From the NCBI GenBank assembly GCA_047651235.1, contig CP178758.1:1650001-1682000 (forward strand): a stretch of 32,000 nt of DNA, in the 5' to 3' direction. Shown here in pieces: positions 6,936 through 30,245 of this stretch. Within the stretch, counting starts at the first letter, position 1. Each line of letters opens with the position of its first letter. Origin of the DNA: Candidatus Electrothrix yaqonensis. GTDB lineage: Bacteria; Desulfobacterota; Desulfobulbia; Desulfobulbales; Desulfobulbaceae. The translations under genes and the position numbers were made by a program. The notes beneath the pieces are model-generated. The model saw only the letters and a list, made by a program, of their open reading frames with translations. It made no database searches and was not told the origin of the DNA.

Positions 6936-7011
6936 TCCTCGGTAGCTCAGTCGGTAGAGCGGGTGGCTGTTAACCACCTTGTCGGCGGTTCGAGTCCGTC
7001 CCGGGGAGCCA
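6936..7011 (+). tRNA. tRNA-Asn (anticodon GUU)
   Basis: Cloverleaf folded by hand. The acceptor TCCTCGG pairs with CCGGGGA, with a D arm GCTC/GAGC. The anticodon stem GGTGG/CCACC carries the loop CTGTTAA. The T arm is GGCGG-TTCGAGT-CCGTC, with discriminator G and an encoded CCA. Confidence 0.93.
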
Positions 7012-9350: not shown

Positions 9351-9866
9351 TTATGCGGCCTCCCAGAAAAGAATAGTATGCGCCTTGTCCCCGAAATCAC
9401 TCCGCACGCATTGTTCCCCGTCCCAGAGATCCGCGTGGCCGGTGGCGTCTGACCAGCCGGAAACTTCAAAGACGATAATGCCTTTTCTGCCCTTGAGATT
9501 TTCTTTGTACTCAGCCGGGGAAACCGTTTCAGGTGCGCCGTATTTTCCTTCCAGATACTGCAGAAGGACCCGCACCCGGAAGATATACCATTTTTTCGTC
9601 CGGTTGCCATCCTGCTGGACAGAGGATTTTTCACCGGAAGAAACCTGAGTTGTTTTTTTCCCGGCTTTATCCGTGGTAGTGTAATAGGGAATCAGGTGGT
9701 CCTCACCTGAAAAGTTGAGCGCCTGCGAAATTCTGGTCGCACAGGCGTTGGTAAAGACGCCGATCTCGTAATTCAGTTGTACTTTTCCGCCTATTTCAGT
9801 AAATACATCCTTTGCAGGTTTATTGGGGAAATGCGTAATAAGGGCTTCCCATTTCGGCAGTTTCAT
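9351..9866 (-). CDS. Tae4-family peptidoglycan amidase effector (type VI amidase effector 4 family)
   Basis: Family hallmarks are present: the catalytic Cys context FTNACATRISQALN, WYIFRVRVLLQYL, and KGRKGIIVFEVSGWSDATGHADLWDG (catalytic His). I prefer the ATG at 9866 (MKLPKW) because GGAGG lies 8 nt upstream; the track ORF begins at 9884. Confidence 0.85.
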   Translation of the reverse strand: MKLPKWEALITHFPNKPAKDVFTEIGGKVQLNYEIGVFTNACATRISQALNFSGEDHLIPYYTTTDKAGKKTTQVSSGEKSSVQQDGNRTKKWYIFRVRVLLQYLEGKYGAPETVSPAEYKENLKGRKGIIVFEVSGWSDATGHADLWDGEQCVRSDFGDKAHTILFWEAA

Positions 9867-10241
9867 GATTTTTTCCTCCAGCATAAAGATCGATCTCTGC
9901 TTACGTTGGTATAACAGGGTTATATACTACAGGCTATTCTATAGCCCGCCGCAGAGCAAGAATTATCTGCAGATGATATTAAGCGGAGCGGCTGCTGACA
10001 AATCAGCTTGTAGAACTCCTGATCCGCAGTTCTACGGACAGAAAATGCATCTGCTGATCAGTGAATCCGGGATCTCTGCAGAAATGTTTTTTTCTCCTGG
10101 AGAGTTCCCCTTCACCTTCATATAGATGCTGTTACAGATGGTTGTTACGCCCTGCGGGTTTAAACTGAAAATTTTGATACTTATTATGGTCTCCGGCATT
10201 CAGCCTTCAATGCTGCAGGTCACAACTTGGGTTAACATATC

Positions 10242-11648
10242 ATGCGCATTCAACCTGTGATTCTTGCCGGAGGAACCGGCACCCGGCTCTGGCCTCTGTC
10301 CCGTGAACTGTATCCCAAGCAGCTGCTCTGCCTGCTCGGTGAACAATCGCTGCTCCAGAACACCCTGATCCGGGTCAGCCTGCTGCCGGATACCCTGCCG
10401 CCGCTTATTGTGGTGGGCGAGGAACACCGTTTTCTGACCAGAACTCAGGTGGAGGCGCTGGATATATTTCCGGATTATCAGGTTCTTCTGGAACCTTTGG
10501 GCAAGGATACGGCCCCGGCAGTCTGCGGGGCGGCTCTGTTTGCCCGGCAGCATTTCGGGGAAAATATCCTGCTGCTCATGCTGCCTGCGGATCATCTTAT
10601 TGCCCGGCCGGATGATTTTGTCCGGGCAGTTGCACGGGCTGCAGAACAGGCCGCGCAGGGAAAGCTGACCACCTTCGGCATTGTCCCGGACCGACCGGAG
10701 ACCGGCTACGGTTATATCCGCAGAGGTGCGGATAACGCGGTGCAATCCTTTGTCGAAAAACCGGACCTGGAAACCGCAAAAAAATACCTTGCGGACCGCA
10801 ATTATTTCTGGAACAGCGGCATGTTCGCCTTTCCGGCGGATCCGCTGCTTGCAGAGCTGAAACGCCATGCTCCGGATATGCTCGCCTGTATGGAACAGGC
10901 GGTTGAACGAGGGACCACAGACGGGGTGTTTTTCCGTTTTGACCGGGAAGGGATGCAGCTATGTCCGGCAGATTCTATTGACTACGCCCTCATGGAAAAA
11001 ACGGACAACGCGGCAGTGGTGGAAGCGGATTTCGGCTGGAACGATATCGGCTCCTGGCAGGCCCTGTGGGAGGTGGCTGAAAAGGACGCGCAGGGCAATG
11101 TGACCGATGGAGACGTGCTGCTTGAGGATGTGGAAAACTGCCTGATCCGCTCTCAGGATACTTTGGTCGCGGCGATCGGCCTGCGCGACACCTTGGTGGT
11201 GGAGACCTCGGATGCCGTCCTAGTTGCCCCAATGGACCGGGCGCAGGATATCAAAAAAATTGTCAGCAGACTGAAACAACAGAAGCGGCCAGAGTTCCAC
11301 AGCCACCGTACCGTACATCGCCCCTGGGGCAGCTACACCACCCTGGAAATCCATGACCGCTTTCAGATCAAGCGGATCACGGTCAATCCGGGCGCACGCC
11401 TTTCCTCCCAGATGCACCATCACCGCCATGAGCACTGGGTGGTGGTCCGGGGAACGGCCAGAGTGGAAAACGGCGACCGGACCATCCTGCTCCGCGAAGA
11501 TGAATCAACCTATATCCGGCTGGGCACCGTGCATCGCCTGGAAAATCCGGGCGTGATTCCGCTGGAGCTGATTGAAATCCAGATCGGCAGTTATCTCGGA
11601 GAGGACGACATTGTCCGTTTTGATGACGAATATGGAAGGGGAAGTTGA
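10242..11648 (+). CDS. manC: bifunctional mannose-1-phosphate guanylyltransferase / mannose-6-phosphate isomerase
   Basis: The N-terminus ILAGGTGTRLWPLSRELYPKQ matches the nucleotidyltransferase domain. The C-terminal cupin has HHHRHEHWVVVRGTA...GTVHRLENPG. The length (468 aa) is typical. Confidence 0.93.
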   Translation: MRIQPVILAGGTGTRLWPLSRELYPKQLLCLLGEQSLLQNTLIRVSLLPDTLPPLIVVGEEHRFLTRTQVEALDIFPDYQVLLEPLGKDTAPAVCGAALFARQHFGENILLLMLPADHLIARPDDFVRAVARAAEQAAQGKLTTFGIVPDRPETGYGYIRRGADNAVQSFVEKPDLETAKKYLADRNYFWNSGMFAFPADPLLAELKRHAPDMLACMEQAVERGTTDGVFFRFDREGMQLCPADSIDYALMEKTDNAAVVEADFGWNDIGSWQALWEVAEKDAQGNVTDGDVLLEDVENCLIRSQDTLVAAIGLRDTLVVETSDAVLVAPMDRAQDIKKIVSRLKQQKRPEFHSHRTVHRPWGSYTTLEIHDRFQIKRITVNPGARLSSQMHHHRHEHWVVVRGTARVENGDRTILLREDESTYIRLGTVHRLENPGVIPLELIEIQIGSYLGEDDIVRFDDEYGRGS

Positions 11649-11860
11649 GCAGTGAAAGATGCTTTAGGAACGAGAATTAAATTCTGCCGCCTCAACAGCG
11701 GGACTGGCTGTCCTTCTGGTCGCCCGGCAATCATGATGACCGGAGGATTGCCTTGTTGGCGGGATTCAAGGGATAAAGCGGGAAGGAAGCGGAGGAGAAG
11801 AAAGGAGGTATTTCTTGATGAAAAAGTACATGAACCGGTTGATTAAGTCGGTTCAGATAT

Positions 11861-11895
11861 AAAAAACCGGGTAACGCGCCAAGCACGCACCCGGT
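11861..11895 (-). terminator. second (distal) candidate rho-independent terminator on the minus strand
   Basis: 7-bp stem ACCGGGT/ACCCGGT with a 16-nt loop, followed on the minus strand by T6 (A6 at 11861-11866 on plus). Confidence 0.4.
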
Positions 11896-11905
11896 GAACT
11901 CAATA

Positions 11906-11939
11906 CAGAAAAAAGGCCGCAAGCCTAAGATGCGGCCTT
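11906..11939 (-). terminator. rho-independent terminator downstream of the 12031-12585 gene
   Basis: 9-bp stem AAGGCCGCA/TGCGGCCTT (11913-11921 / 11931-11939), followed on the minus strand by a T-run (A-run on plus at 11906-11912). Confidence 0.65.
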
Positions 11940-12030
11940 GGTTACTCAATTCAGATCAACCGCGCAATCAAGTCCCTTTTAACAAACTGATACTTTTTAA
12001 TTAAGGATCAGGATAGTCGCAGCCAAGCTC

Positions 12031-12585
12031 TTAAGGACATTTTATTTTCCTGCCAAGAGCTTGAAATTCTGAGACAGCATAAAGACCATCTCCGGCTCCT
12101 GCAGTATAGTGTTCAATCCTGAAAGCATCAGTAACGGCATCAATATTCATGGTGATTAGCCTGTCCATACCCCAGTGTCTGTCAGGAACGACAATTACCT
12201 GTCCAGGACCGGTATATCCAAGCCTCTTGTCCTGCCATGAGATGAGATAGTCATCATTATTATCGACTTGGATTCGTATCTTCTTAACCTGATAGCAATG
12301 CGGACCCAAGAAGACTTGTAAAAAGTTCTGTTCCTGATCTTGATTTTCATCCCACCAGATAGGGCCTTGATCCCATTGATGGCCTGTTGCGAATATTTCT
12401 CCATCGGTAAGTGTACTGTAATCCGTTGTTAATCCATTCCCCCATCCACCGGTGAAAAATTCTCCCCATGCTGCAACTGTTTTACGTTTTGCAACATTTC
12501 CAGAAAAAGCCGGAACAGTGAATCCCAAAAGAATTGAAGTTGCAACAGTAAGAGTTATTGCCGATTTAACAGAGTGCTTTTTCAT
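12031..12585 (-). CDS. secreted hypothetical protein, possible galactose-binding-like (discoidin/F5_F8 type C-like) fold
   Basis: Signal peptide MKKHSVKSAITLTVATSILLGFTVPAFSG, a Trp/Asp-rich beta-type sequence, and a C-terminal YAVSEFQALG resembling the end of discoidin-type domains. AT-richer than the flanks. The family call is tentative. Confidence 0.5.
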   Translation of the reverse strand: MKKHSVKSAITLTVATSILLGFTVPAFSGNVAKRKTVAAWGEFFTGGWGNGLTTDYSTLTDGEIFATGHQWDQGPIWWDENQDQEQNFLQVFLGPHCYQVKKIRIQVDNNDDYLISWQDKRLGYTGPGQVIVVPDRHWGMDRLITMNIDAVTDAFRIEHYTAGAGDGLYAVSEFQALGRKIKCP

Positions 12586-12785: not shown

Positions 12786-13364
12786 TCAGATTCTATCCGC
12801 TGTCACCACATAGCGCTGCCGGGTACCGGGGCGGACTGCCCGGAAAGGATAGCAGGTGATCAGGGCCAGCTGGGCCCTTCCCTGCTGCGGCAGATAAAGT
12901 GCTTCTGCCTGCCGGACTGCAGTTGCGCTGACCCGGTAGCGCCATTGCCGCCCGTGCCCGTCCTCCAGAGTAAAGATATCTCCTTTACGCACACTGCGCA
13001 GAAAACGGAAATGGGTATCCCGGTGGGCTGCCAGGACACAGGTACCTGCCTGTCCGGGCGCAGCACCGGTCTGCAACATCCCCGGCCCGAAGGCAAGGGC
13101 CTCCCCGGACTGCCCGGCCAGCACGATCATCTCCCGGCCGTCTTTTTCCGCCTGCAGCCGGGCCACCGGCCAGGTATCGGCCCAGGGCCACGGCCTGACC
13201 GGGACATTCCGGCTCAGGGTCTGCTCCCAGGCCCGGTGCAGGAGCAGCTGGGCCAGCAGCCCCTTGGCATGAATCCACATGCTGTTGCCGCAGAGCAGCA
13301 TCCCGACGGCAGAGCACAGGACAGCAGCCAGCCCTGTGCTCTGCCGTCTCCACTTGGGCTGCAT
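12786..13364 (-). CDS. class GN sortase (proteobacterial sortase)
   Basis: N-terminal TM, then GTCVLAAHRDTHFRFL (catalytic His) and LALITCYPF (catalytic Cys, TC motif). I prefer the ATG at 13364, 2 nt after the target gene's stop; the track ORF starts at 13391. Confidence 0.85.
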   Translation of the reverse strand: MQPKWRRQSTGLAAVLCSAVGMLLCGNSMWIHAKGLLAQLLLHRAWEQTLSRNVPVRPWPWADTWPVARLQAEKDGREMIVLAGQSGEALAFGPGMLQTGAAPGQAGTCVLAAHRDTHFRFLRSVRKGDIFTLEDGHGRQWRYRVSATAVRQAEALYLPQQGRAQLALITCYPFRAVRPGTRQRYVVTADRI

Positions 13365-13366
13365 GA

Positions 13367-15478
13367 TCACGGCATTCTCCTGTGCAGCCAAATAAGCAGC
13401 CCGGTAAGAAGCAGGAACAGCGTGCCGATGAGGAGCTGCAGGGCCGCCGGGGTTGCCGTTGCAGAACCGCCTGCAAAAACCGAACTGTACTGCCAGCCTG
13501 CAGGCAGATTGCTCTTGACCGCTTGCTTCTGCAGCGAAGCATCTTTGGGCCGGGAAACCTTTTCCTCCACCGCAACCAAACTGGTATAGCGGCTGACCAG
13601 ATGATTGTTCAGGGCGAGTTCGGTCACCTCCTGCCGCACCTGCTGCGGATCAGCCCCGGAGGAGAGGCTGTCCAGCAGGATTCTGATTTTCTTCCGCGCC
13701 CAGAGCACCGCGATGCCGGGCCGGTCAGTAAAGGCCGTGGTATCAACCGTCATCTGCCAAGGCGTCACGCCGCCCCGCAGCCCGGCAAGCTGCAGCTGAC
13801 CCGCTTCTCCCTTTCCCTTCACCACCACGGTCAGCGGTTCGCCCTGATACAGATCCGGCAGCGGAGAGGGCAGGGTTTTGAGGCCCTCTGCCCCGGTCAG
13901 CTGCAGATTGGTGATGGCTGGTTGCTCCAGCATGAAGAACAGGCCGGTCATTTTTCCCCGCACCTCTTCCAGCTTGCCGATAAAAGTATAACTGCCCCGG
14001 CCCATTGCAGCTGCCCTGGTCATGAAATAGCTGTTCGGCGCCGAGCCGATCCCCACCGTGAACAGACGGGAGTCGCCGAGACGGTCATGGATCATGGTGA
14101 ACAGTTCCGCTTCGTTACTCACCGAACCGTCGGTCAGAAAAACGATCTGCCGGATGCGCTCGTGCTTCTGCTGACCGTCCAGGGCCATATCCAGCGCCGT
14201 GCTGATTTCCGTGCCGCCGTTGGCCTCAAGCCCTTCGATGAACGCAACGGCCCGGCTGATGTTCTCCGGACTGCCCGGCCTGCTGTCGTTGAACAGGGAA
14301 CGGGCTGTGCTGTTGAACTCAATTACATTGAATCGGTCACGGGGTCGCATACGCTCCACAGCCATGCGCAGGGCCTTTTTCGCCTGCCTGATGGACTCAC
14401 CGCCCATTGAACCGGAGGTATCCAAAATAAACACCACTTCGCGGGCCAGCGGTTCCTGCTGCGCCTGTTCCGGCGGCATCACCATGAGCAGCATGTAGCG
14501 TTCATCGCCCTTCTGCTCACTGAACAGGGTGACTGCGGGGGCCTGCTGTTTTTCCGGTTCCCATTCCAGAACAAAATCACGGTCTGCTTTGACCTCGCTG
14601 GTAAAACGGATATCTATACTCCTGTCCTCATTTTTACTGCTGGTAATCCCGTGATACAGGCTGTCGATTCGGGCCAGCTCCATCCCGGCTGCCAGATTCA
14701 CATGCAGGTTCACCGGATTCACTGCGGCTTCGTTCGGTTTGACGACCGACAGTTGCGGCAGGGTGTGAGCCGCAGTTTCACCAGCCCCTCCGGAAAAACC
14801 GGGAGAATATCTGGGCCCGACAAGCATGGGGAAGCGCAGCGAGTACAGGGAATCTTGGCGCTGCACCACCTGCTGGTATTCAATCTGAATAATCACGGTC
14901 TCTCCGGGACCGATATTGGCCACAGCCGTGGTGAAGATATTGGGCCGCTGCTGCGAAAGAAGCGAGGTCTTCTTGCCTGCCTTTTTGGCCGCCTCATAGG
15001 TTTTGCGGGCCTCTTCTTTTTTCTGAATTTTGCCGACGACCACCCGGTCATTGATCCGCATCTCCAGATGATCCACTGCGCTCTCGTCCGGCAGGGGAAA
15101 AACATACAGCGCCTCGACCCATTCATCAGAATCATTGCTGAAATGCTGTCTGACCGTGGCCCGCGCCGCAATGCCGCTCACCCTGATATCAACATCCATT
15201 GAAAGCATGGGCGCCGCCCGGAATTTCCCCGGCTCATCACTCGGCAACAGCAGCTCCCCCTGCTGCACAGCATCCAGGGTCACCAGTTCCTCCCGGCCTG
15301 TCCGGTCTGACTCGGTCTGCCCTGCGGGATCAGCTGCAGCAGACCCGAACCAGCCGAGCACCACCAGCACGGCCATAGTTAGGGTATAGACGGCCAGCAG
15401 TAAAGAACCGGGATCCAAATGGCGGGGTTGCTGATTGCGTTTTTCCTGTTTTTCCTGTTTTTTCTGTACTGATGTCAT
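13367..15478 (-). CDS. VIT + von Willebrand factor A domain protein, proteobacterial sortase target type
   Basis: It has an N-terminal TM/signal, a VIT-like region, and a vWA domain with the MIDAS motif FILDTSGSMGG. The C-terminus is tripartite: TM (AALQLLIGTLFLLLTGLLIWL) plus a basic tail HRRMP. I prefer the ATG at 15478, preceded by AAGGAGG; the track ORF extends to 15616. Confidence 0.85.
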   Translation of the reverse strand: MTSVQKKQEKQEKRNQQPRHLDPGSLLLAVYTLTMAVLVVLGWFGSAAADPAGQTESDRTGREELVTLDAVQQGELLLPSDEPGKFRAAPMLSMDVDIRVSGIAARATVRQHFSNDSDEWVEALYVFPLPDESAVDHLEMRINDRVVVGKIQKKEEARKTYEAAKKAGKKTSLLSQQRPNIFTTAVANIGPGETVIIQIEYQQVVQRQDSLYSLRFPMLVGPRYSPGFSGGAGETAAHTLPQLSVVKPNEAAVNPVNLHVNLAAGMELARIDSLYHGITSSKNEDRSIDIRFTSEVKADRDFVLEWEPEKQQAPAVTLFSEQKGDERYMLLMVMPPEQAQQEPLAREVVFILDTSGSMGGESIRQAKKALRMAVERMRPRDRFNVIEFNSTARSLFNDSRPGSPENISRAVAFIEGLEANGGTEISTALDMALDGQQKHERIRQIVFLTDGSVSNEAELFTMIHDRLGDSRLFTVGIGSAPNSYFMTRAAAMGRGSYTFIGKLEEVRGKMTGLFFMLEQPAITNLQLTGAEGLKTLPSPLPDLYQGEPLTVVVKGKGEAGQLQLAGLRGGVTPWQMTVDTTAFTDRPGIAVLWARKKIRILLDSLSSGADPQQVRQEVTELALNNHLVSRYTSLVAVEEKVSRPKDASLQKQAVKSNLPAGWQYSSVFAGGSATATPAALQLLIGTLFLLLTGLLIWLHRRMP

Positions 15479-16651: not shown

Positions 16652-18121
16652 ATGCAGTTTTCTAGAACGACCACAATGCATTTTCCTTTACGGAAAGATC
16701 CTGTTTCTGCCCGGTCCATGAGGACTATGAGGAGGTTCCTCGCCGTGGCAGGTATGCTCCTCCTTTTTCTGCCTGCGCCTCTTTTTGCCTCGGAAGGCGG
16801 CGCGCACCTCAGCATTCATCCGATCTGGATTCTCCCCTTTGCCCTGCTGTTAGGCTGTATCGCGGTGCTGCCGCTCGTGGCCCATCACTGGTGGGAGTCC
16901 AACCGGAACAGGGCTCTGGTGAGCGGGACATTCGCGCTTCTCTTTGTCGCCTACCTGCTCATCAACTTCGGCCATACAGGCTGGGTGGCTATCTATCACG
17001 CCATGCTGTTTGAATATCTGCCGTTTATCGTTTTGCTGGGTGCCCTGTTCATCATTTCCGGCGGCATTTATATCAAAGGATCGCTTGCCGGAACTCCTCT
17101 TGCCAACACCATACTTCTGCTCATCGGAGGAGCGGCAGCCAGTTTTATCGGCACCACAGGCGCTTCAATGGTCCTGATCCGGCCACTGTTGCGGGCAAAT
17201 CAGTCGCGAGAAAACAAAGTTCACCTTGTGGTCTTTTTTATTTTTGTGGTCTCCAACTGCGGCGGCCTGCTGACCCCGCTGGGCGATCCGCCGCTCTTTC
17301 TCGGTTTTCTCAAAGGAGTTCCCTTCGGCTGGACCATGCGGCTGTGGAAAGAATGGCTTTTTGTCAACGGTATCCTGATTGTTGCAGCCAACCTGCTTGA
17401 TCAATATGTTTTTGACCGGGAAGAAAAACGCCGTCCGGGCTCGCAGCTCGAACAGGTGATGGAGCATGAACCGCTGCGTATTCTCGGCTGGCACAACCTC
17501 CTTTTTCTGGCAGGGATTGTGCTGGTGATCCTGGGCAAAGGACAGGGATGGGGCGGCGAATGGCCCTTCGGCCTGCAGGAGATCCTGATGACCGGGATTA
17601 CCATTGCAGCGTATGTCACGACGAAAAAAGAAATCCGGGTAGAGAACAGGTTCACCTTTGCCCCCATCATTGAAGTGGCTGTTCTGTTTGCCGGGATTTT
17701 CATCACCATGATCGCCCCGCTGACCGTGCTGAACGCCCACGGCAGCGAGCTGGGCCTGAGCAAATCGTGGCATTTCTTCTGGGGGACCGGCCTGCTCTCC
17801 AGTTTTCTGGACAATGCGCCGACATATCTGACCTTTGCCGCCACAGCAGCCGGCAGCATGGGCGTCAGTGTGGACAGTCCGAAATACCTGGCAGATTTCC
17901 TTGCAGCCGGTGGCGACCGGGCTGTTGAACTGCTGATCGCCATTTCCTGCGGGGCCGTGTTTATGGGAGCCAATACCTATATCGGCAATGGCCCGAATTT
18001 TATGGTCAAGGCGATTGCCGAGGAAAACGGGGTGCGGATGCCGAGCTTTTTCGGCTACATGGCATGGTCGTCCTGCATCCTGCTTCCGGTTCTGCTTCTT
18101 GCCACCCTGATTTTCTTCTGA
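16652..18121 (+). CDS. ion-transporter-superfamily permease (ArsB/NhaD/CitMHS-like, commonly annotated sodium:proton antiporter)
   Basis: Polytopic membrane protein with PLVAHHWWESNRN near the N-terminus and FLDNAPTYLTF near the C-terminus. The start is uncertain; several in-frame Met codons lie between 16652 and about 16727. Confidence 0.7.
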   Translation: MQFSRTTTMHFPLRKDPVSARSMRTMRRFLAVAGMLLLFLPAPLFASEGGAHLSIHPIWILPFALLLGCIAVLPLVAHHWWESNRNRALVSGTFALLFVAYLLINFGHTGWVAIYHAMLFEYLPFIVLLGALFIISGGIYIKGSLAGTPLANTILLLIGGAAASFIGTTGASMVLIRPLLRANQSRENKVHLVVFFIFVVSNCGGLLTPLGDPPLFLGFLKGVPFGWTMRLWKEWLFVNGILIVAANLLDQYVFDREEKRRPGSQLEQVMEHEPLRILGWHNLLFLAGIVLVILGKGQGWGGEWPFGLQEILMTGITIAAYVTTKKEIRVENRFTFAPIIEVAVLFAGIFITMIAPLTVLNAHGSELGLSKSWHFFWGTGLLSSFLDNAPTYLTFAATAAGSMGVSVDSPKYLADFLAAGGDRAVELLIAISCGAVFMGANTYIGNGPNFMVKAIAEENGVRMPSFFGYMAWSSCILLPVLLLATLIFF

Positions 18122-18122
18122 T

Positions 18123-18213
18123 GAGGAATGCCGAGTTGACCGGTATTTTCCCGCAATAATCAACCGCAAGTGACCATTATACCAGGAAAATTTCGGTCAA
18201 CTCGGCATTATCC
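18123..18213 (+). other. attC-like hairpin at the proximal edge of the array (attC0)
   Basis: 25-nt arms at 18127-18151 (AATGCCGAGTTGACCGGTATTTTCC) and 18185-18209 (GGAAAATTTCGGTCAACTCGGCATT), complementary except for 2 positions. The R'-position box is ATTATCC (18207-18213) instead of GTTRRRY. Confidence 0.5.
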
Positions 18214-18239
18214 TTCAAAATCCAAAAGAAGAGTTAAGT

Positions 18240-18575
18240 ATGTATGGATTTTTAGTATTGCCGTTTTTAATTACCATAGGAATATCTATTCTCTTGGTAA
18301 ATTTGCTACCAAGAGTGCATAAAATCCTCAAGTTAAAAAAGCAAATTTCTTTTGGGAAATCAGTTTTATTGGTCATTATTTTATTTGTTCCATCATGTAT
18401 TGGTGTTATGGAAATTGTCGATTCAATACGCTACGGAACATTTACTTACAATAAGCATATGGAGGTTGATGGTAGAAGGATTCGAAATTGGATGCCACCA
18501 AAGGCAACGAATATTGTTGTTCACAAGACTTCTTACGGCCATTTTGCTAAGTTTACAATTGAAAAAAAATGCTGA
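18240..18575 (+). CDS. cassette 1 ORF a: small membrane protein (two TM helices)
   Basis: ATG with good hydrophobic helices. It ends at TGA (18573-18575) directly after an A8 tract and overlaps the next ORF by ATGCTGA. It may be the 5' half of one split gene. Confidence 0.5.
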   Translation: MYGFLVLPFLITIGISILLVNLLPRVHKILKLKKQISFGKSVLLVIILFVPSCIGVMEIVDSIRYGTFTYNKHMEVDGRRIRNWMPPKATNIVVHKTSYGHFAKFTIEKKC

Positions 18576-18811
18576 TGGATTGGCTTTCTCAAAAACGTAA
18601 TGAAACTGATATACCTCAAATAAAAGAGGATACATTCATGGACAGGAGTTCTGAGGCTCTAATATTTGAATCGTGGTTTAAAGAAGTTGGTTGGAAATAC
18701 CCCGTAGATAGTATAAAAAATCATGTGACACTAAGTTCAAATGGCGCTGGCTTTACTATTTGGTATTCTCAAACTCTTAACGAAGCATATTTATTTGCAA
18801 GTTACTGGTAA
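18569..18811 (+). CDS. cassette 1 ORF b: hypothetical 80-aa protein (possibly the 3' half of a split gene)
   Basis: The start overlaps the stop of ORF a. One extra A in the A8 tract (18561-18568) would fuse the two frames (…FTIEKK-MLMDWLSQ…). Confidence 0.45.
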   Translation: MLMDWLSQKRNETDIPQIKEDTFMDRSSEALIFESWFKEVGWKYPVDSIKNHVTLSSNGAGFTIWYSQTLNEAYLFASYW

Positions 18812-18849
18812 AATGATTAATTTTAATGTTTTTTGATATAAAAAATATT

Positions 18850-18950
18850 GGATAACAATCCGGCTTCACCTGACGCAAAAGCCGGGCACCTTTTTCAAAA
18901 AAATGAAAGTTTATCGTCGGCTTTTGCTCAGGTGAGCCGGGGCGTTAAGC
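18850..18950 (+). other. attC site 1 (R'' GGATAAC, R' GTTAAGC)
   Basis: AACAATCCGGCTTCACCTGACGCAAAAGCCG pairs imperfectly, with bulges, with CGGCTTTTGCTCAGGTGAGCCGGGGCGTT. R'' is the complement of the start of cassette 1 (TTATCC at 18208). Confidence 0.8.
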
Positions 18951-19001
18951 GGCTTCACATTTTCCCAAGCTGAACCATAAAGAAATTTACCGAGGTTAAC
19001 G

Positions 19002-19940
19002 GTGGGCCATAACGACCATCTTGAAGATTACTATCCGGATTTGCCAGAAGAGGCGGGCGTTATTACAAGGTCAGGCTTCGATCCTAATAATGAATGGCTT
19101 TCATCAGCACCGCCTGACCTGCGTCATGAGGCAATGCGGCAATGGTTCCTGAGTCGTTTTTGGGACCCAGCGAATGATACACCTTACAATGGTCGCGAAG
19201 GAGGATACCTCTATATTCATGGCGGTCCTTACGAAGCAGAGGATGAGTTGTATGGCAGGTTCGGGGATTTATTTAATGATGAGATAGTGCGTGCTGTAAT
19301 TGATGATGTAGAGTCGGATGGGATATATGAATGGGCCCCAATACATACTGAGCCCGATTACGATGAATACTTTTCTTTTGAAGTTGAATCGGAAGACTCG
19401 CCTTACCAACAATTTCTCCAACGTTTATCAGAAATTGATTCATTGAACGAGGCGGTTCTGGATTCTGAGCATAAAATACTGCTACGCCAACTTCTTTATT
19501 CACATCTGATTGCTGCTTTAGAAACATATTTGTCAGACACTATGTCATATTGGGTTAAATTCGATGAGGACGTTTTTAAAAGATTCGTTTCAAACTGCTC
19601 CGAATTTAAAAAAGAGAAATTATCGCTATCAACTATATTTAATCGTCTTGAAGCGCTAAGAGATCAGGTTGAGCAATACATACAGAAAACTGTCTGGCAT
19701 CGTCTTGACAGGGTTATGCCGCTTTTTTCGAGTTCGATGGATATCGAAAGGCCAGAAATTGAACAGCTAATGAAATACATTGTAATTCGTCATGACATAG
19801 TCCACAGAGGCGGAAGAACAAAGGAAGGTAGTCATGTGGAAATTACACCAGATAAGCTATCCGAGCTACGGCACTGTGTTGCAACCTTTGTTAAGAAAAT
19901 TGAAGGAAAAGTCACATCGAGAGGTGATTTTGAATTTTAG
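19002..19940 (+). CDS. cassette 2: hypothetical protein with a C-terminal HEPN-like domain (Rx4H: IRHDIVHRGG)
   Basis: GTG start with GAGG 5 nt upstream. The C-terminal ~150 aa is all-helical, with AALETYLSD near its start and RHDIVH near its end. This resembles the RiboL-PSP / MAE_28990-type HEPN families. The N-terminal ~140 aa is acidic and unrecognised. Confidence 0.55.
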   Translation: MGHNDHLEDYYPDLPEEAGVITRSGFDPNNEWLSSAPPDLRHEAMRQWFLSRFWDPANDTPYNGREGGYLYIHGGPYEAEDELYGRFGDLFNDEIVRAVIDDVESDGIYEWAPIHTEPDYDEYFSFEVESEDSPYQQFLQRLSEIDSLNEAVLDSEHKILLRQLLYSHLIAALETYLSDTMSYWVKFDEDVFKRFVSNCSEFKKEKLSLSTIFNRLEALRDQVEQYIQKTVWHRLDRVMPLFSSSMDIERPEIEQLMKYIVIRHDIVHRGGRTKEGSHVEITPDKLSELRHCVATFVKKIEGKVTSRGDFEF

Positions 19941-19955
19941 TCTTTTTCAAGAGCC

Positions 19956-20027
19956 GCTTAACAAGTTGCTGCACTCGGAATAATTACTCGCTGCGCTCCT
20001 AATTTTCCGGTGAGCAAGGCGTTATCG
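19956..20027 (+). other. attC site 2 (R'' GCTTAAC, R' GTTATCG)
   Basis: GCCGCTTAAC (19953-19962) is the exact reverse complement of GTTAAGCGGC (18944-18953) at the cassette start. The arm AACAAGTTGCTGCACTCGG pairs imperfectly with CCGGTGAGCAAGGCGTT. Confidence 0.85.
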
Positions 20028-20068
20028 CCGAACCGGTTACACAACATGAAGTATTACAGGAGTTACAT

Positions 20069-20557
20069 TTGATCTATATCGAAGCGATTTTTATGGGAAG
20101 TTTTGCAACTGTCTTCATGGACATTTTTGCCGGTATTCTTGCAACAAAAAAAGTAATTCATCCTTTTGTGTCATCGGGATCAATGGGTAGATGGTTTCTA
20201 TATATTTTTAAAGGAAAATTGTTTCACAAAGATATCGACCATTCACCAAAATTGAAGAATGAAAAAATGTGGTGCATGATATCGCATTATCTAATTGGCA
20301 TGATGTTGGCTGGAGTGTTCTTGATTCTTGAGCAGCACGTGCAGTTTGTTAATGATAATGTGTGGACGTCATTGGTGTTTGGAATTGGTACGGTTTGTTT
20401 TCCATGGTTTTGGTTATTGCCAAGCATTGGAAAAGGTGTGATGGCTTCACGATGTGATAACAGGATACAAATCATAAAAACAAATTTGATAAATCATACA
20501 AATTACGGAATTGGATTATTTTTATGGAGTGCTTTCATCCATCAATTTTTCTTTTGA
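20069..20557 (+). CDS. cassette 3: DUF2938-like integral membrane protein
   Basis: TTG start 6 nt after AGGAG (alternative ATG at 20093). About 4 TM helices with GRWFLY...F.H..I...P....E...ISHYLIG, which I associate with DUF2938. That assignment is from memory. Confidence 0.55.
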   Translation: MIYIEAIFMGSFATVFMDIFAGILATKKVIHPFVSSGSMGRWFLYIFKGKLFHKDIDHSPKLKNEKMWCMISHYLIGMMLAGVFLILEQHVQFVNDNVWTSLVFGIGTVCFPWFWLLPSIGKGVMASRCDNRIQIIKTNLINHTNYGIGLFLWSAFIHQFFF

Positions 20558-20582
20558 GCGTATTTAATATACCCAAAAATTG

Positions 20583-20659
20583 CGATAACAAGTGCTTCAA
20601 CGGGGCACCATAACCGCGCTTCCGCGCGGTCACGGTGCCCGTTAAGCACGGCGTTAGAT
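20583..20659 (+). other. attC site 3 (R'' CGATAAC, R' GTTAGAT)
   Basis: GCGATAAC (20582-20589) is the reverse complement of GTTATCGC (20021-20028). The arm AACAAGTGCTTCAACGGGGCACC pairs with GGTGCCCGTTAAGCACGGCGTT, with single-base bulges. Confidence 0.85.
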
Positions 20660-20677
20660 TTCAGAATGGAGAAGTAG

Positions 20678-21382
20678 ATGAATATAGTTAAAACCGCTCT
20701 GGTAACAGGTGGAAATAAAGGTATTGGTTTAGAAGTCACTAGAGAGCTTATAAATTTAGGTTATAAAGTTTTTGTAATCGCAAGAACCTTTGATAAATCT
20801 GAAATTCTAAATTCTGAAAATGTCGTCAAAAAGAGTTTTGACTTAACAAAAGTTGAGCTAATTCCTGAATTAATATCAGAGCTGGGTGAAATTGATATAT
20901 TAGTTAATAATGCAGGTGTCATGCATTCAATTCCGTTTAATAACTATCCTCAAGATAAAGTGGATGGAATGTTGAAACTAAACATTGAAGCTCCTGTTGC
21001 ATTAATTCGTGAAATATCAAAAAGTATGGTTAAGAAAGGCTCTGGTAGAATTGTAAACAATGCTTCAATTGCAGGGGAAATTGGCCATCCTGATATTTGG
21101 TACGGCATTACAAAAGCTGGACTAATTAATGCTACTAAGAGCTTCGCTAAAATTTTAGGAGCGAAAGGAATTGTCATTAATGCAGTTGCTCCTGGACCTG
21201 TTGAAACTGATATGCTTAATGTTATTCCAGAAGACCGAAAGAATGCAATTAAAAGTACTGTCTACACTGGTCGGTTCGCCAAACCTGAAGAAGTAGCAAA
21301 AACCATAGTTTGGTTGGCAACAGAATGTCCAGAATATATAAATGGAACATGTATAGATATTAATAATGGTGCTTATCCTTGA
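20678..21382 (+). CDS. cassette 4: short-chain dehydrogenase/reductase (FabG-like SDR)
   Basis: TGGNKGIG cofactor motif, NNAG, and the catalytic S...YGITK. GGAG lies upstream of the ATG. Confidence 0.9.
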   Translation: MNIVKTALVTGGNKGIGLEVTRELINLGYKVFVIARTFDKSEILNSENVVKKSFDLTKVELIPELISELGEIDILVNNAGVMHSIPFNNYPQDKVDGMLKLNIEAPVALIREISKSMVKKGSGRIVNNASIAGEIGHPDIWYGITKAGLINATKSFAKILGAKGIVINAVAPGPVETDMLNVIPEDRKNAIKSTVYTGRFAKPEEVAKTIVWLATECPEYINGTCIDINNGAYP

Positions 21383-21398
21383 TGATTGGCAACTAAAA

Positions 21399-21451
21399 AT
21401 CTAACAAGTTAATCAACTGGACGTATTACGGTTGTCATTAAGGCGTTCCCG
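21399..21451 (+). other. attC site 4 (R'' ATCTAAC, R'-position GTTCCCG), distal end of the array
   Basis: AAATCTAAC (21397-21405) is the reverse complement of GTTAGATTT (20653-20661). It is short (53 nt) and its right box after GTT is not RRRY, consistent with a junction to non-cassette DNA. Confidence 0.7.
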
Positions 21452-21609
21452 TTCCAACGCTTGGTCCTGCGGCGCTGCGCGCCTTCGGAAAGATGCACTG
21501 ACAGCTCCTGTTCGGAACGCCTGTAATTCCGCAGAGAGGTTGCCAGATTCAGTCAGGAAAGGTAATATCCCCGCACGATACTTTTCAACTCATTGCACGG
21601 AGAACAAGA

Positions 21610-22905
21610 ATGGGACAAACGGGACAGACACTAGCTGAAAAAATTTTCGCTGCCCATCTGCGCGATACCCCGACACCGGAAAACATGGTGCTGGATATAG
21701 ATGTCATCATGTGTCATGAAATCACCACGCCCATTGCCATCATGGATCTGGTAGACAAGGGCATGGATCGGGTGATTGATCCAAACCGGATCAAAGCGGT
21801 CATCGACCACGTAACCCCGGCCAAGGATTCCAAGACCGCGACCCAGGCCAAGATTATGCGGGATTGGGCCAAGCGGCATAAGATCAAAGATTTTTTTGAT
21901 GTGGGTCGCAACGGGGTCTGTCATGCCCTGTTCCCGGAAAAGGGTTTTATCCGGCCGGGAAATACGGTGATCATGGGCGATTCCCACACCTGCACCCACG
22001 GTGCTTTCGGGGCCTTTGCCGCAGGCGTTGGAACCACAGACCTGGAGGTGGGTATTCTCAAGGGGGTCTGTGCTTTCCGCAAACCCAAATCAATGAAGAT
22101 CGAAGTCACCGGCAGCCTGCCGCAGGGTGTGTATGCCAAGGACGTGATCCTCAAGATCATCAAGCAGCTCACCGTGAACGGGGCCACGGATATGGTCATG
22201 GAGTTCTGTGGCCCGGTGGTGGAGGAGATGGACATGTCCTCCCGGATGACCCTCTGTAATATGTCCGTGGAAGCGGGCGCCACCTCTGGCCTCTGCCTGC
22301 CGGACAAGGTCACGGCCGAGTACCTCTGGCCCTTTATCCAGGAGGATTATGCTTCGCTTGAAGATGCTGTAGAAGACTTCAGCAAATGGCATTCTGATCC
22401 TGCTGCGGAGTACGCCGAGACTCTGACTATTGATGTCTCTGACCTGCGCCCCCAGGTGACCTATGATTATAAGCCGGACAAGGTTAAGGATATTGATGAG
22501 CTGGCCGGAGCCAAGATCGATCAGGTCTATATCGGCTCCTGTACCAACGGGCGCATCGAAGATATCCGGGCTGCAGCCTCCATCCTGCGCGGACGTACCA
22601 TTGCCGACAGCGTGCGCGGGATACTGACCCCGGCCACCCCGGCCATCTACTCCCAAGCTCTGGACGAAGGGCTGATCAAAATCTTCATGGATGCGGGCTT
22701 TTGCGTACTCAACCCCACCTGCGGTGCCTGCCTGGGCATGAGCAGCGGCGTGCTGGCTGAGGGCGAGTCCTGCGCCTCCACCACCAACCGGAATTTCAAC
22801 GGTCGCATGGGCAAAGGCGGCATGGTCCATCTGATGAGCCCGCTGTCCGCCGCCGCAGCAGCGGTCACCGGAGAGATCACAGACCCGGCCCAGTTTATCA
22901 ACTAA
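21610..22905 (+). CDS. leuC: 3-isopropylmalate dehydratase large subunit
   Basis: Aconitase-family domains 1-3 with the Fe-S ligand contexts GDSHTCTHGA and GSCTNGR...NPTCGACLG. The 431-aa length matches the short LeuC type. Confidence 0.92.
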   Translation: MGQTGQTLAEKIFAAHLRDTPTPENMVLDIDVIMCHEITTPIAIMDLVDKGMDRVIDPNRIKAVIDHVTPAKDSKTATQAKIMRDWAKRHKIKDFFDVGRNGVCHALFPEKGFIRPGNTVIMGDSHTCTHGAFGAFAAGVGTTDLEVGILKGVCAFRKPKSMKIEVTGSLPQGVYAKDVILKIIKQLTVNGATDMVMEFCGPVVEEMDMSSRMTLCNMSVEAGATSGLCLPDKVTAEYLWPFIQEDYASLEDAVEDFSKWHSDPAAEYAETLTIDVSDLRPQVTYDYKPDKVKDIDELAGAKIDQVYIGSCTNGRIEDIRAAASILRGRTIADSVRGILTPATPAIYSQALDEGLIKIFMDAGFCVLNPTCGACLGMSSGVLAEGESCASTTNRNFNGRMGKGGMVHLMSPLSAAAAAVTGEITDPAQFIN

Positions 22906-22926
22906 GCAGCCCAGCTAAAAGGAGCA

Positions 22927-23475
22927 ATGAAGGACATGAAAGCATTCGGCGGTTCAGCCTTTTTTATCGACAGAGACGACATCAATACGGACGAGATTAT
23001 TCCGGCCAAATACCTCACCGAGATCACCAAGCGAGCCTTACAGCCTCATCTGCTGGAAGACCTGTTCCTGGACGGCAAGGAGTTCGACACCCAGGCAGAT
23101 GACTTCCAACAGGCATCGGTGCTGGTGACCCGCTCCAATTTCGGTTGCGGTTCCTCCCGTGAGCATGCAGTCTGGGCACTGGAGGTCAATGACATCAACG
23201 TAGTTCTCGGCGAGAGCTTTGCCCGTATCTTTCGCCAAAATATGTTCAACTGCGGTATCCTGGCGGTGGAGCTTGCCAAGGCGGATATTGACCAGCTTTT
23301 TGCCCTTGCCAGCGATAATGATAATATTAAAATCGGCATTGATCTGGAAAACGACATTGTGGTTGCAGAGAACAATCAAGGGAAGAAGGCGGAGTGCAGT
23401 TTCTCCATGAATCCCTTTGATAAGGAGCTGGTGGCTGCTGGTGGCTGGCTGGCCTATGCGGATCAGAAGTACTGA
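22927..23475 (+). CDS. leuD: 3-isopropylmalate dehydratase small subunit
   Basis: Aconitase swivel domain with NTDEIIPAKYL and NFGCGSSREHAVWAL. The start could instead be the ATG at 22936. Confidence 0.9.
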   Translation: MKDMKAFGGSAFFIDRDDINTDEIIPAKYLTEITKRALQPHLLEDLFLDGKEFDTQADDFQQASVLVTRSNFGCGSSREHAVWALEVNDINVVLGESFARIFRQNMFNCGILAVELAKADIDQLFALASDNDNIKIGIDLENDIVVAENNQGKKAECSFSMNPFDKELVAAGGWLAYADQKY

Positions 23476-23507
23476 TTTCATCGTACACTGCTGATGTGTC
23501 AGTAGAG

Positions 23508-23791: not shown

Positions 23792-24498
23792 ATATAGCTG
23801 AAGCAGAATAAAATGAGTATTATATCGGCATGACATATTCAATAGATTTTCGCCGTAAAATTTTGGAAGTCAAAGAGCGGGACGGTCTGAGTTTCGAAAA
23901 AACCGCAGCCCGTTTCGGAGTCGGTAAATCCAGCGTGAGCCGATGGACGAAACGTGTCGAACCCTGCCGGAGCCGAAATAAACCGGCAACAAATATTGAC
24001 ATGGAACTGCTCGCCCGTGATGTTGAACTGTATCCCGATGCGTATCAGTATGAACGGTTCGGATGCAGCCAGCGCGGTATAGGGAAAGCTCTGAAACGCC
24101 TGAAAATCAGCCGTAAAAAAAACTCTTTCGCATCCGAAGGCGGATGAAAAGAAACGCTCTGTCTTTGTCGATAAAATCAGCACATATGAGGAATCCGGTT
24201 TTCCTCTGATTTATATTGATGAAAGCGGCTTCGCTCATGATATGCCGCGCACCTGCGGATATGCGCCCGTAGGTGAACGATGCTCCGGTATTCATAATTG
24301 GCGGGAGAAGGGCCGTATCAATGCTGTCGGCGCACTGTCCGGGAAAAATCTGCTGACGGTGACTCTGTTCGACGGGACCGTCAATTCCGATGTGTTTTAT
24401 GCATGGATCAGGCAGGATTTATTACCGAAACTGCCTGAACGCAGTGTGGTTGTCATGGACAACGCCTCTTTTCATAAACGTCGGGATATAGCTGGAGC
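23792..24498 (+). mobile_element. IS630-family insertion sequence, left end plus 5' two-thirds only
   Basis: The left terminus ATATAGCTGAAGCAGAATAAAATGAG (TA-flanked) closely matches the termini of the MITE-like element at 25089-25197. The transposase is interrupted. No matching right end follows the transposase at the expected distance. Confidence 0.8.
23830..24486 (+). pseudogene. IS630-family DDE transposase, frameshifted at an A8 tract (24115-24122) and truncated after the second catalytic Asp
   Basis: The HTH part is in frame 1 (MTYSIDFRRKILEVKERDGLSFEKTAARFGVGKSSVSRW...NKPATNIDMELL...YQYER). The catalytic part is in frame 2 (KKTLSHPKADEKKR...LIYIDESGFAHDMPRTCGY...VVVMDNASFHKRRDI). The region carrying the third acidic residue (PPYSPDLNPIE-type) is absent. 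Confidence 0.8.
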
Positions 24499-25081
24499 TA
24501 TAGATGGCGGCAGTACCGATTCTACCCTGCAGGAAATCAGCAGACGAGGGCTGACACCGGTCTCCTCCGCTCCTGGCCGGGGACCGCAGCAGCACACCGG
24601 GGCACGGGCATCAACCGGAGAAATTCTTCTTTTTCTCCATTGCGACACAGCCCTGCCGCCGGATTTTCCGTTTCAGACCCGGGAAACACTACAACAGAAA
24701 AACGTTGCGGCCGGTGCCTTCAGACTACATATTGGTGGACGGGGCCCAGGATTCCGCTGCCTTGAAGCCGGGGTCAATCTACGTTCAAGGCTCTTCAGCC
24801 TGCCTTATGGCGATCAGGCTTTGTTCATGCGCAGAACAACCTATTTTGCCAGCGGTGGCTTTCCGGGGCAGCCACTCATGGAGGATGTCGCCCTAGTAAA
24901 ACGCCTTAGAAAGCTGGGCAGGATTGTCCTTGCCCCGGCCTGTGTAACCACCTCGGCCCGGCGCTGGCAGCAGCACGGTCTGCTCAGAACAACCCTGCTC
25001 AATCAGCTCATCCTGCTGGGCAGTGCTGCGGGCGTTCCTCCGTACCGGCTGGCGCAGTGGTATTACAGAAAAAGGAGATAA
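24499..25081 (+). pseudogene. family-2 glycosyltransferase (TIGR04283-like), 5'-truncated and fused in frame to the transposase remnant
   Basis: The sequence is DGGSTDSTLQEI...GRGPQQHTGA...LLFLHCDTALP...PYGDQALFMRR...PLMEDVALVKRLR...TSARRW. The usual N-terminal ~40 aa (the IIIPTLNE-type start) is missing. Confidence 0.65.
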
Positions 25082-27406: not shown

Positions 27407-27904
27407 TTATGTGCTATCTTCTTGAGACATCGCGTTCTTGATGCTTCCCGCGAGTTTGTCCGGACTGTAAGATGCCCTCGCGCGAACTCGCAGGATCGGG
27501 AGACCAGCTGCAGCCAATGCATCATCAACGAATGCGTCACGGGCCTGACGACTCTTCCTGTCATGGGATGAATCATCAAGTTCTATTGCAAGCACAGGAC
27601 GGATTGGCCCCGGTTCGCACAGAACGAAATCGATGTGCTTCGACTGGATTCGGTTGAAAAAGGACTGGCGATTCTCAGTGCCTTTCTTGATGTAGAGCAG
27701 ATCTGCAAGGCGAATCTTGGCGAATATGAGCAGCTCAGAGCCGACGGCTTGCTGTAGTACGCCGAAGAATGATCGCTCTGCTCGGCTAAAAAGGTAGTCT
27801 TTGCGAGCATAAGGCAACTTTTTCTTAGCGGGTGCTTTGACTCCGAACAGTTTGAGGAGTATCCCGAGACAACCCGGCGGTTCGTTCTTGGCGGTCTGAT
27901 TCAT
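27407..27904 (-). CDS. DUF2726 domain protein (PD-(D/E)XK-clan nuclease-like)
   Basis: The sequence is FSRAERSFFGVLQQAVG...IFAKIRLADLL...NRIQSKHIDFVLCE...LAIELDDSSHDR...RDAFVDDALAAAGLPILRV. This is the typical DUF2726 pattern. Confidence 0.85.
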   Translation of the reverse strand: MNQTAKNEPPGCLGILLKLFGVKAPAKKKLPYARKDYLFSRAERSFFGVLQQAVGSELLIFAKIRLADLLYIKKGTENRQSFFNRIQSKHIDFVLCEPGPIRPVLAIELDDSSHDRKSRQARDAFVDDALAAAGLPILRVRARASYSPDKLAGSIKNAMSQEDST

Positions 27905-29351: not shown

Positions 29352-30245
29352 TTATTCCTGTTCCAGCAGGCGGGCAATACTTTCTTTGGATAATCCCGTG
29401 CCTGCAGCAATAATTTCAGGATCAATGTTCTGTGCAAGTAAGTTTCGAGCAATCGAAAGCCTCTCTTCCTGTTTTCCTTCCTTCAGTCCTTCCTTCAGTC
29501 CCTCCTGTTTTCCTTCCTGCAAGCCTTGTTCTCTCCCGTCCTTTTTTGCTTTTTCCAGCGAGCCTTTCTGTAGCCAGATAAAATCTCTGCGCTTGAACTG
29601 CACTTCCAGCTCTTCCTCACTGAGCAAGGCCGTATTGGCGATATCAAAGGCATCCAGCAGGTTCGGTTCGGTGAAAGAGCGGGGAATGAAATCAAGTTCA
29701 CCGGCGTTTTTGATAAAATAAATCCATTTATCCGTCACCGAGCGCAGTTCGTCCTCGCTTTTGGTAAACTTCGGCAGCTCGATAAAAACAAGCTCAATGT
29801 CACCGCTGTACTGAACAAAGCTGTCCTTTTCCCGCAGGTTCCAGTAGGAAATCACCCGGTCGAATTCATGAAACATCTCAAAATCGGTGATGGTCAGGGC
29901 GATGACCGGCTCCAGGGTCGCATACTTCTCTGATTTCTTCAGCTGGGTGGAATACAGCTTGGCCGCATTATACAGCACACGCTTTTCAAAACCTTCCACA
30001 TTGAGTACCTGCATCTCAATGATGACCTTGCGGTGGTCGGACAGGACAGCCTTGACATCCACATAGCTGTCTTTCATGCCTTTGAGCAGGGGCACCTGAT
30101 AGGGATCAACAATGGTGAGATCCGTGATTCCGGCGTCCCCGAAGTCAATGACCGCGTTGAGGAAATCAATCAGGATCGCCTTGGACTGCTCGCTGCCGAA
30201 GACTCGCTTAAAGGCGAAGTCAGTTTTAACATCTAGGAAGTCCAT
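29352..30245 (-). CDS. Rpn-family recombination-promoting nuclease / putative transposase (PDDEXK_2, TIGR01784-like), intact
   Basis: It has the canonical start [22 protein letters not shown], the core DVKAV...IIEMQ, IELPKF, and a C-terminal EG-repeat region ([21 protein letters not shown]) before the terminal helix. Confidence 0.9.

Follow-up and report, generated by a model that had tools for sequence, protein, structure and literature searches.

A probable integron cassette array without an integrase between a permease gene and leuCD in the cable bacterium Candidatus Electrothrix strain YB6

Results

A low-GC block of four cassettes between a permease gene and leuCD

We analyzed a 32-kb stretch of DNA (the window, in whose coordinates all positions are given) from Candidatus Electrothrix strain YB6, a cable bacterium of the Desulfobulbaceae whose genome was closed from Oxford Nanopore Technologies and Illumina reads (PMC12093952). 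Between a permease gene and the host core genes leuC and leuD, the window carries a block (18208-21445) that is very probably an array of four integron cassettes without integrase, attI, or Pc, that is, a clustered set of attC sites that has no integron integrase (CALIN). The four cassettes are co-oriented, and every open reading frame (ORF) faces its own attC site. The GC content of the block is 37.6%, compared with 53.3% in the left flank and 53.2% in the right flank (window mean, 51.5%), and the drop from 53% to 37.6% coincides with the array junctions. The orientation of the ORFs and the AT-richness of the block agree with a preliminary description of this DNA, and the motifs quoted there were all present at their positions. 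The cassette 1 protein showed 100% identity to ACL93V_07830 of strain YB6, and the NCBI names for the proteins of cassettes 2-4 agree with this source. An independent Logan assembly (SRR31704081_21969, L081) agreed with the window across 11.8 kb with 0 mismatches. The sites (S0-S4) and cassettes are as follows.

18123..18213, + strand: S0, left-end site; GAGGAAT (R''-like, 18123-18129), GCCGA, GTTGACC ... GGTCAAC, TCGGC, ATTATCC (R'-like, 18207-18213)
18208..18944, + strand: cassette 1; GC 34%; one gene of about 191 aa (18240-18811)
18850..18950, 101 nt, + strand: S1, attC of cassette 1; R'' GGATAAC, R' GTTAAGC; long imperfect stem
18945..20021, + strand: cassette 2; GC 42%; 312-aa HEPN (RiboL-PSP type) protein, 19002-19940; Pfam PF18735, E 1.8e-9
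19956..20027, 72 nt, + strand: S2, attC of cassette 2; R'' GCTTAAC, R' GTTATCG
20022..20653, + strand: cassette 3; GC 38%; 162-aa DUF2938 membrane protein, 20069-20557; Pfam PF11158, E 2.7e-33
20583..20659, 77 nt, + strand: S3, attC of cassette 3; R'' CGATAAC, R' GTTAGAT
20654..21445, + strand: cassette 4; GC 34%; 234-aa short-chain dehydrogenase/reductase (SDR), 20678-21382; Pfam PF00106, E 9e-40
21399..21451, 53 nt, + strand: S4, terminal site; R'' ATCTAAC, R' GTTCCCG; AAC/GTT retained

G|TT junctions delimit cassette 2 as a mobile unit

In blastn comparisons, cassette 2 was approximately 91% identical at the nucleotide level to three other contigs (L162, L163, and L164) from 18942/18943 to 20024/20025, where the homology stopped. 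Alignment of both junctions showed that the homology begins at G|TTAAGCGGC and ends at GGCG|TTA, with unrelated flanks on either side. The neighboring genes across the three contigs are a SpoU methylase and a beta-lactamase-fold gene, pspF and an RVT_1 gene, and a 2-hydroxyacid dehydrogenase and a Y2 transposase. Cassette 2 is thus shown to be mobile as a discrete unit, with G|TT at both boundaries. Its right boundary, validated in this way, is also the left boundary of cassette 3. Furthermore, the homologue of cassette 1 in contig L168 starts immediately past a canonical G|TTATCC; the left boundary of cassette 1 was therefore set at 18207|18208, and the odd A at 18207 was assigned to S0.

The HEPN family of cassette 2 is also connected to an integron integrase (IntI). 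In a 5.18-Mb genome (L174), a homologue with 62% identity occupies the second cassette position in a complete integron. The recombinase of this integron, 334 aa long and transcribed divergently from the cassettes, scored 472 bits with TIGR02249 against a cutoff of 265, identifying it as a true IntI. The cassette 2 protein has many relatives at 79-92% identity, and its 90% cluster includes proteins from Halomonas, Photobacterium, Shewanella, and Celerinatantimonas, a membership that points to a recent cross-phylum transfer. A protein search of a plasmid collection returned only HEPN homologues of 33-42% identity, which were uninformative on the boundaries; 131 of the 164 matches were on conjugative plasmids.

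Two further observations were made in the related contigs. In L164, an RVT_1 reverse-transcriptase ORF (11080-12576) begins directly past the attC of the HEPN cassette. Group IIC-attC introns target attC sites, and the placement of this ORF calls them to mind. In L162, the cassette array and the beta-lactamase-fold gene are separated by a region (~13100-13450) with three tandem repeats of approximately 120 nt (CTGCCGCAGGCAATTGATAC...CATGGTTCAAG...).

S1, S2, and S3 fold as attC sites

Candidate sites were examined for AAC in R'' and GTT in R' at the base of an imperfect hairpin of 55-140 nt, and for a stable bottom strand whose extrahelical bases all fall in a single arm (the '' arm) and whose R and L boxes are separated by an unpaired central spacer. 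Bottom strands were folded with DNA parameters, and z scores were calculated against shuffled sequence. The bottom strand of S1 gave a dG of -27.5 kcal/mol (z -5.9) with single-base bulges (G, A) in the 3' arm only, and that of S3 gave -28.2 kcal/mol (z -5.7) with bulges (C, G) again confined to the 3' arm. S2 had a z of -2.8 and three bulges, all in the 3' arm. The three sites follow a common plan of R'' (7 nt), spacer, L'' ... L', spacer, and R', with 2-nt unpaired spacers between the R and L boxes, and the L box of S3 (CTT-C-AAC / GTTAAG) yields the classical extrahelical G on the bottom strand. S1, S2, and S3 are the sole canonical attC sites of the five. Thus, the imperfect arms with single-base bulges that had been ascribed to the sites in general, and the R/L architecture with extrahelical bases sought by bottom-strand folding, were found in S1-S3 but not in S4, which has bulges in both arms, or in S0, which is free of bulges.

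Every AAC...GTT pair in the window was then scanned with the triplets forced to pair. S3 formed the strongest hairpin and S1 the second strongest, and this AAC...GTT-anchored scan found no comparable hairpin elsewhere in the 32 kb outside the block. The right ends GGCGTT and left ends TAACAA(G/T) reported previously were confirmed in S1-S4; site ends of the form TAACAA... ...GGCGTTA would resemble those of Vibrio-type attC repeats. Against an expectation of 0.07, the window contains TAACAA-N30-60-GGCGTT three times; S4 fits this pattern, and S1 combines these ends with a longer loop. In a divergent copy of cassette 2 in contig L165, 8 of the 22 stem pairs of the S2-type attC are compensated and the bulge positions are kept, a comparison that covers one divergent lineage.

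Other candidates were tried and rejected. A minimal rule (AAC, spacer, 3 bp, one bulge, 4 bp, and a mirror half ending in GTT) did not discriminate, with 14 matches versus 11.7 in shuffled sequences, and was dropped. A sixth site or hairpin past S4 (21440-21530) was not significant (z -1.6). An inverted repeat of 8-9 bp (GGCGTTCC...GGAACGCC, 21442-21522) overlaps R' of S4; its fold was likewise nonsignificant (z -1.6), and it closes a 90-nt region that is unique to the YB6 genome, 5' of leuC.

Cassette starts complement their own R'' boxes

The preliminary description had claimed that each cassette starts, at a G|TT junction, with the exact complement of the R'' of its own attC. This was true of cassettes 2, 3, and 4, in which the complementarity is perfect over 11 nt (GTTAAGCGGCT at 18944 versus 19952-19962), 8 nt, and 9 nt, respectively. 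Cassette 1 matches at only 6 of 7 nt because position 18207 is A instead of G, and its junction is A|TT. The further claim that such complementarity exceeds chance depends on how it is counted. Unanchored 8-mer reverse complements at distances of 300-1300 nt were not enriched (20 observed versus 14 +/- 5.5 in shuffles). By contrast, the anchored complementarity comprises approximately 23 matched bases beyond the AAC/GTT triplets, which corresponds to roughly 4^-23. The complementarity of the ends is therefore significant only because the complements sit exactly at the R'' and R' of successive hairpins.

A surrogate covariance model supports the attC reading modestly

A surrogate attC covariance model (R1) was constructed from five attC sites in L162, L164, and L165, with none from the window. 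Its alignment (A4) replaced a seven-site MAFFT alignment (A3) in which two sites broke register, and the model has low power. On the window, S2 was the best match (21.3 bits, E 6.5e-4), followed by the 3' half of S3 (20608-20659; 15.8 bits, E 0.027), which was anchored on an internal AAC. No significant match to R1 was found in approximately 50 kb of related Electrothrix DNA. These model scores lend modest support to the attC reading. An Rfam scan of the window returned a tRNA only and no attC match.

S0 is an atypical hairpin at the left end

The permease stop codon occupies 18119-18121 and S0 begins at 18123, so that the stop lies just before the first hairpin, as previously noted. S0 has a 16-bp perfect stem with a fully paired spacer (dG -26.8 kcal/mol, z -8.2) and an intermediate GC content of 47%. 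A repeated REP (repetitive extragenic palindromic)-like element was considered and rejected, with no second copy in the window. The box layout of S0 (7-5-7 ... 7-5-7) and its L boxes GTTGACC/GGTCAAC match the attC plan, and S0 could thus be a decayed attC that underwent a G-to-A change. Alternatively, the hairpin may have belonged to the host and served as a secondary site. The TTCC past the last junction of the array would lengthen the S0 palindrome by 2 bp, which is a weak hint with a chance probability of ~1/16. The reconstructed cassette-free hairpin reads ...CTCGGCATTCCCG, and the reconstructed junction without cassettes reads CTCGGCATTCCCGTTCC. In L174, the HEPN cassette's own attC (10930-10960) has collapsed to approximately 20 nt (GCCTAAT-TGCGAC-GTTGGGC), and AAT, the variant triplet seen in S0, also terminates its R''.

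No integrase is present in the window

To search for an integrase, all sizeable ORFs of the window were compared with Pfam, and no Phage_integrase domain or tyrosine recombinase was found. An IntI1 probe, validated at 799.5 bits against the NCBIfam integron-integrase equivalog, detected no IntI-like reading frame in the window by tblastn (best E 2.3), in agreement with the earlier report that intI is absent here. The same search gave no match in the other cassette-bearing loci that it covered. Within the window limits, neither intI nor an intI pseudogene occurs within 18 kb upstream or 10.5 kb downstream of the array. No intI, attI, or Pc adjoins the first cassette: its upstream neighbor is the co-oriented permease gene, and S0 is a hairpin that is not attI-like.

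To count as a CALIN, a region needs two or more attC sites that share a strand and are spaced by less than 4 kb, and it must lack both intI and intI pseudogenes over 10 kb on either side (Cury et al. 2016, IntegronFinder, PMC4889954). S1-S3 together with S4 span 2.6 kb on the + strand, and the array falls within this published definition. The YB6 genome paper (PMC12093952) makes no mention of an integron or integrase, which is weak evidence, and no paper pairing Electrothrix with an integron was found in the searched literature.

Cassette genes and their expression

The two ORFs of cassette 1 proved to be a single gene of approximately 191 aa, encoding a small membrane-anchored protein of unknown function, that is broken by a -1 frameshift in an A8 run at 18562-18569; one extra A restores a single ORF. 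The frameshift is also present in the independent Logan assembly. The only homologues of the protein, P0122 and P0123 (191 and 194 aa; 56-61% identical), are both unbroken across the frameshift point. Because of this frameshift, the cassette 1 gene is predicted to be an inactive pseudogene.

The HEPN protein of cassette 2 carries an R-x4-H motif (RHDIVH) and has a GTG start, compared with ATG in its relatives. The ORF of cassette 3 has a TTG start behind an AGGAG motif, and its protein is a singleton 90% cluster. The SDR of cassette 4, also a singleton 90% cluster, has intact TGGxxGIG and YxxxK motifs and was classified as a generic SDR because it fell below every NCBIfam equivalog cutoff. PADLOC and NCBIfam searches of the cassette proteins gave no specific family beyond this generic SDR, and no PADLOC defence model matched the HEPN protein.

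None of the cassettes has a promoter, and a Shine-Dalgarno sequence accompanies each of their ORFs. Promoter-like sites were not enriched (11 versus 11.2 expected). No terminator was predicted between the permease gene and the array, and no T-runs follow the hairpins; because no terminator was predicted, read-through from the permease gene into the cassettes is plausible.

Genomic context of the array

The genes and sites flanking the array are as follows.

16652..18121, + strand: CitMHS_2-family permease, upstream flank; Pfam PF16980, E 3.8e-157
21540-21568: promoter-like site 5' of leuC (promoter prediction)
21610-22905, + strand: leuC, downstream flank, host core gene; 95-96% protein identity to LeuC in other Ca. 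Electrothrix
22927-23475, + strand: leuD, downstream flank, host core gene; 89-92% protein identity to LeuD in other Ca. Electrothrix

The array lies a few nucleotides from the neighboring host gene at one end and up to ~165 nt at the other, and both neighbors are intact. The permease gene has an alternative start at 16745 (giving 458 aa) and a host-like GC content of 55%, and its product is a singleton 90% cluster. Among GTDB representative genomes and JGI metagenomes, no permease orthologue exceeded 64% identity; the best matches were mostly from metagenome-assembled genomes of Planctomycetota and lacked synteny. The permease gene (16652-18121) may itself be a horizontal acquisition despite its host-like GC content. 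The possibility that the permease gene is itself a cassette with S0 as its attC was ruled out by its host-like GC content and the lack of an attC-like site 5' of the gene.

Comparison of the permease-leuC interval with relatives, which had been proposed as a check for cassette polymorphism, showed that nucleotide homology with other Electrothrix genomes at the leuC locus is limited to leuCD (21596-23486). The genes upstream of leuC vary, and no presence/absence polymorphism was readable.

An IS630-family remnant (insertion sequence, IS; 23830-25081) begins ~350 nt past leuD, with an HTH_Tnp_IS630 ORF at 23830-24147 and a DDE_3 fragment fused in frame with the C-terminal part of a glycosyltransferase-2 ORF (24242-25081). 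This remnant suggests an old insertion or deletion at the rearranged leuC locus. Two PD-(D/E)XK "transposase" genes (PDDEXK_2, Rpn-like) lie near the ends of the window, at 538-1476 (+) and 29352-30245 (-). Other low-GC patches, all with accessory or defence-like genes, occur at 5002-5799 (NERD and zinc ribbon, with a weak PglW match), 9351-9884 (Tae4 amidase), and 27407-27904 (DUF2726); no attC signal was found around these three patches. The tRNA gene at 6936-7008 scored 64.5 bits and has a strong T-run hairpin behind it; no adjoining integrase or island boundary was seen there. No direct repeats, tRNA, or phage genes were found bounding the low-GC block.

Discussion

The proposal that an integrase-less array of four cassettes lies between the permease gene and leuCD is upheld by the homology breakpoints at G|TT, the link to a true IntI in L174, and the absence of an integrase from the window. 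We suggest that a trans-acting IntI, encoded elsewhere in the YB6 genome or on a transient element, would have brought the cassettes in through bottom-strand attC recombination. S1-S3 appear to retain the features for recombination (AAC/GTT, an unpaired spacer, and one-arm bulges), and therefore cassettes 2 and 3 should remain excisable if IntI were supplied; S1 x S2 and S2 x S3 recombination could excise them. The ends of the array look frozen because cassettes 1 and 4 each rely on a defective terminal site, S0 having ATT at the crossover and no bulges and S4 apparently having lost its stem. Expression, if any, would occur by read-through from the co-oriented permease gene.

Several observations weigh against this interpretation. 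The two terminal sites are not those of a canonical array. In S0, AAT/ATT replaces AAC/GTT, and there are no single-base bulges, the unpaired bases being restricted to symmetric 2x2 internal loops. S4 folded no better than shuffled sequence (dG -3.6 kcal/mol, z 0.1), with bulges in both arms; its spacers, AAGTT and AAGGC, are those of S2, and S4 is probably a decayed site with a lost stem. The R1 model missed S1 and S0 and gave S4 a nonsignificant 7.6 bits, although the model is weak and has little power on long loops. For cassettes 3 and 4, no relatives were found in other contexts and the limits were set by complementarity, and for this reason the boundary between them and the right end of the array are placed by attC features only. 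Finally, no empty-site allele (permease-leuC without cassettes) was found among the permease relatives or the leuC-anchored Electrothrix loci because synteny upstream of leuC varies among relatives, and insertion at this very spot is therefore presumptive.

The array might alternatively derive from a complete integron at another position in the 3.74-Mb YB6 chromosome, as a displaced piece or satellite that a rearrangement separated from it, and the IntI of that integron would still shuffle the cassettes of the array. We regard this origin as possible but doubtful. For approximately half of CALINs, IntI is encoded in the same replicon, and rearrangement counts among the accepted origins of such arrays (PMC4889954). 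The leuC neighborhood is rearranged among Electrothrix, with the IS630 remnant past leuD and the two PDDEXK_2 genes in the window. However, the array ends within a few to ~165 nt of intact host genes, and the sharp GC step at G|TT or A|TT suits site-specific insertion better than a random breakpoint. The lack of intI over the 18 kb upstream and 10.5 kb downstream also argues against a satellite, as does, weakly, the silence of the genome paper.

A second alternative, which we consider rather unlikely, is de novo seeding: IntI would first have used a non-att site, the A|TT of the S0 hairpin, to insert a single cassette, and attC x attC recombination would then have brought in the others. That cassettes can insert outside att sites has been established by experiment, and such insertion has been proposed as the origin of small CALINs and of single attC sites lacking an integron integrase (SALINs) (Loot et al. 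preprint, 10.1101/2022.09.11.507474). S0 lies directly behind a host stop codon, has a GC content of 47%, and lacks attC bulges, and the 2-bp extension of its palindrome by TTCC looks as if the array had split one hairpin. On the other hand, attG, the non-att genomic site described in that work, is double-stranded, has a 5'-GWT-3' consensus, and is cleaved after G (10.1101/2022.09.11.507474), unlike an ATT hairpin; the attC-like box layout of S0 could equally mark a decayed attC with a G-to-A change, and there is no empty site for comparison. The more specific scenario, that S0 was a pre-existing host hairpin mimicking the attC boxes and that a trans-acting integrase used the folded S0 to seed the array de novo, is in our judgment less likely still.

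A non-integron origin, with terminators or REP-like repeats accounting for the hairpins and an island brought in by phage, IS, or homologous recombination accounting for the low-GC block, is very improbable: the minimal R/L-box-with-bulge rule is unspecific, S0 and S4 are non-canonical, and unanchored 8-mer complements are common, but the homology breakpoints fall at G|TT, the cassette family is tied to a true IntI, the attC stem covaries, T-runs and predicted terminators are lacking, S0 is single-copy in the window, and no direct repeats, tRNA, or phage genes flank the block.

Taken as a CALIN, the array resembles the members of that class (PMC4889954) in its small size of four cassettes, its co-oriented attC sites, and its non-resistance genes, mostly of unknown function. 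There is no categorical difference; here the host is a cable bacterium and both terminal sites are degenerate. Compared with the sedentary chromosomal integrons of marine Gammaproteobacteria (Vibrio, Shewanella, and Photobacterium type), the array shares promoterless cassettes with their own ribosome-binding sites, and the cassette 2 protein is at least 90% identical to Photobacterium, Shewanella, and Halomonas proteins. Unlike those integrons, the YB6 array has no intI, attI, or Pc, holds four cassettes, and has heterogeneous attC sites (53-101 nt) instead of a homogeneous repeat family. With the attG/SALIN route it shares the placement of cassettes between ordinary chromosomal genes, at a distance from att sites and integrases, and its right junction, G|TT followed by host DNA, is compatible with GWT; it differs in its left junction, an A|TT within a strong hairpin, since attG sites are described as double-stranded and unstructured. 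The predicted RiboL-PSP-type HEPN protein with R-x4-H in cassette 2 recalls HEPN toxin or defence cassettes, but cassette 2 has no partner gene (MNT, antitoxin) and no PADLOC match.

The element is a further case of the well-described CALIN class, in a host with no prior integron report in the searched literature, and it leaves the current understanding of integrons unchanged. It adds a documented integron cassette array to the cable bacteria, a lineage with few closed genomes, and it illustrates the decay of a CALIN: the crossover triplet is inactivated at its left end, the hairpin has collapsed at its right end, and one of its cargo genes is frameshifted. The most interesting details are S0 and the cross-phylum HEPN cassette. 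If S0 did seed the array, a CALIN would here have arisen naturally at a genomic site that is structured and non-GWT, unlike the experimentally described double-stranded attG, in a phylum that had received the cassettes from Gammaproteobacteria. Other chromosomal arrays contain cassettes with approximately 91% nucleotide identity to the 1.08-kb HEPN cassette, and marine Gammaproteobacteria encode proteins with at least 90% identity to its product, suggesting that cassettes cross phyla in sediments.

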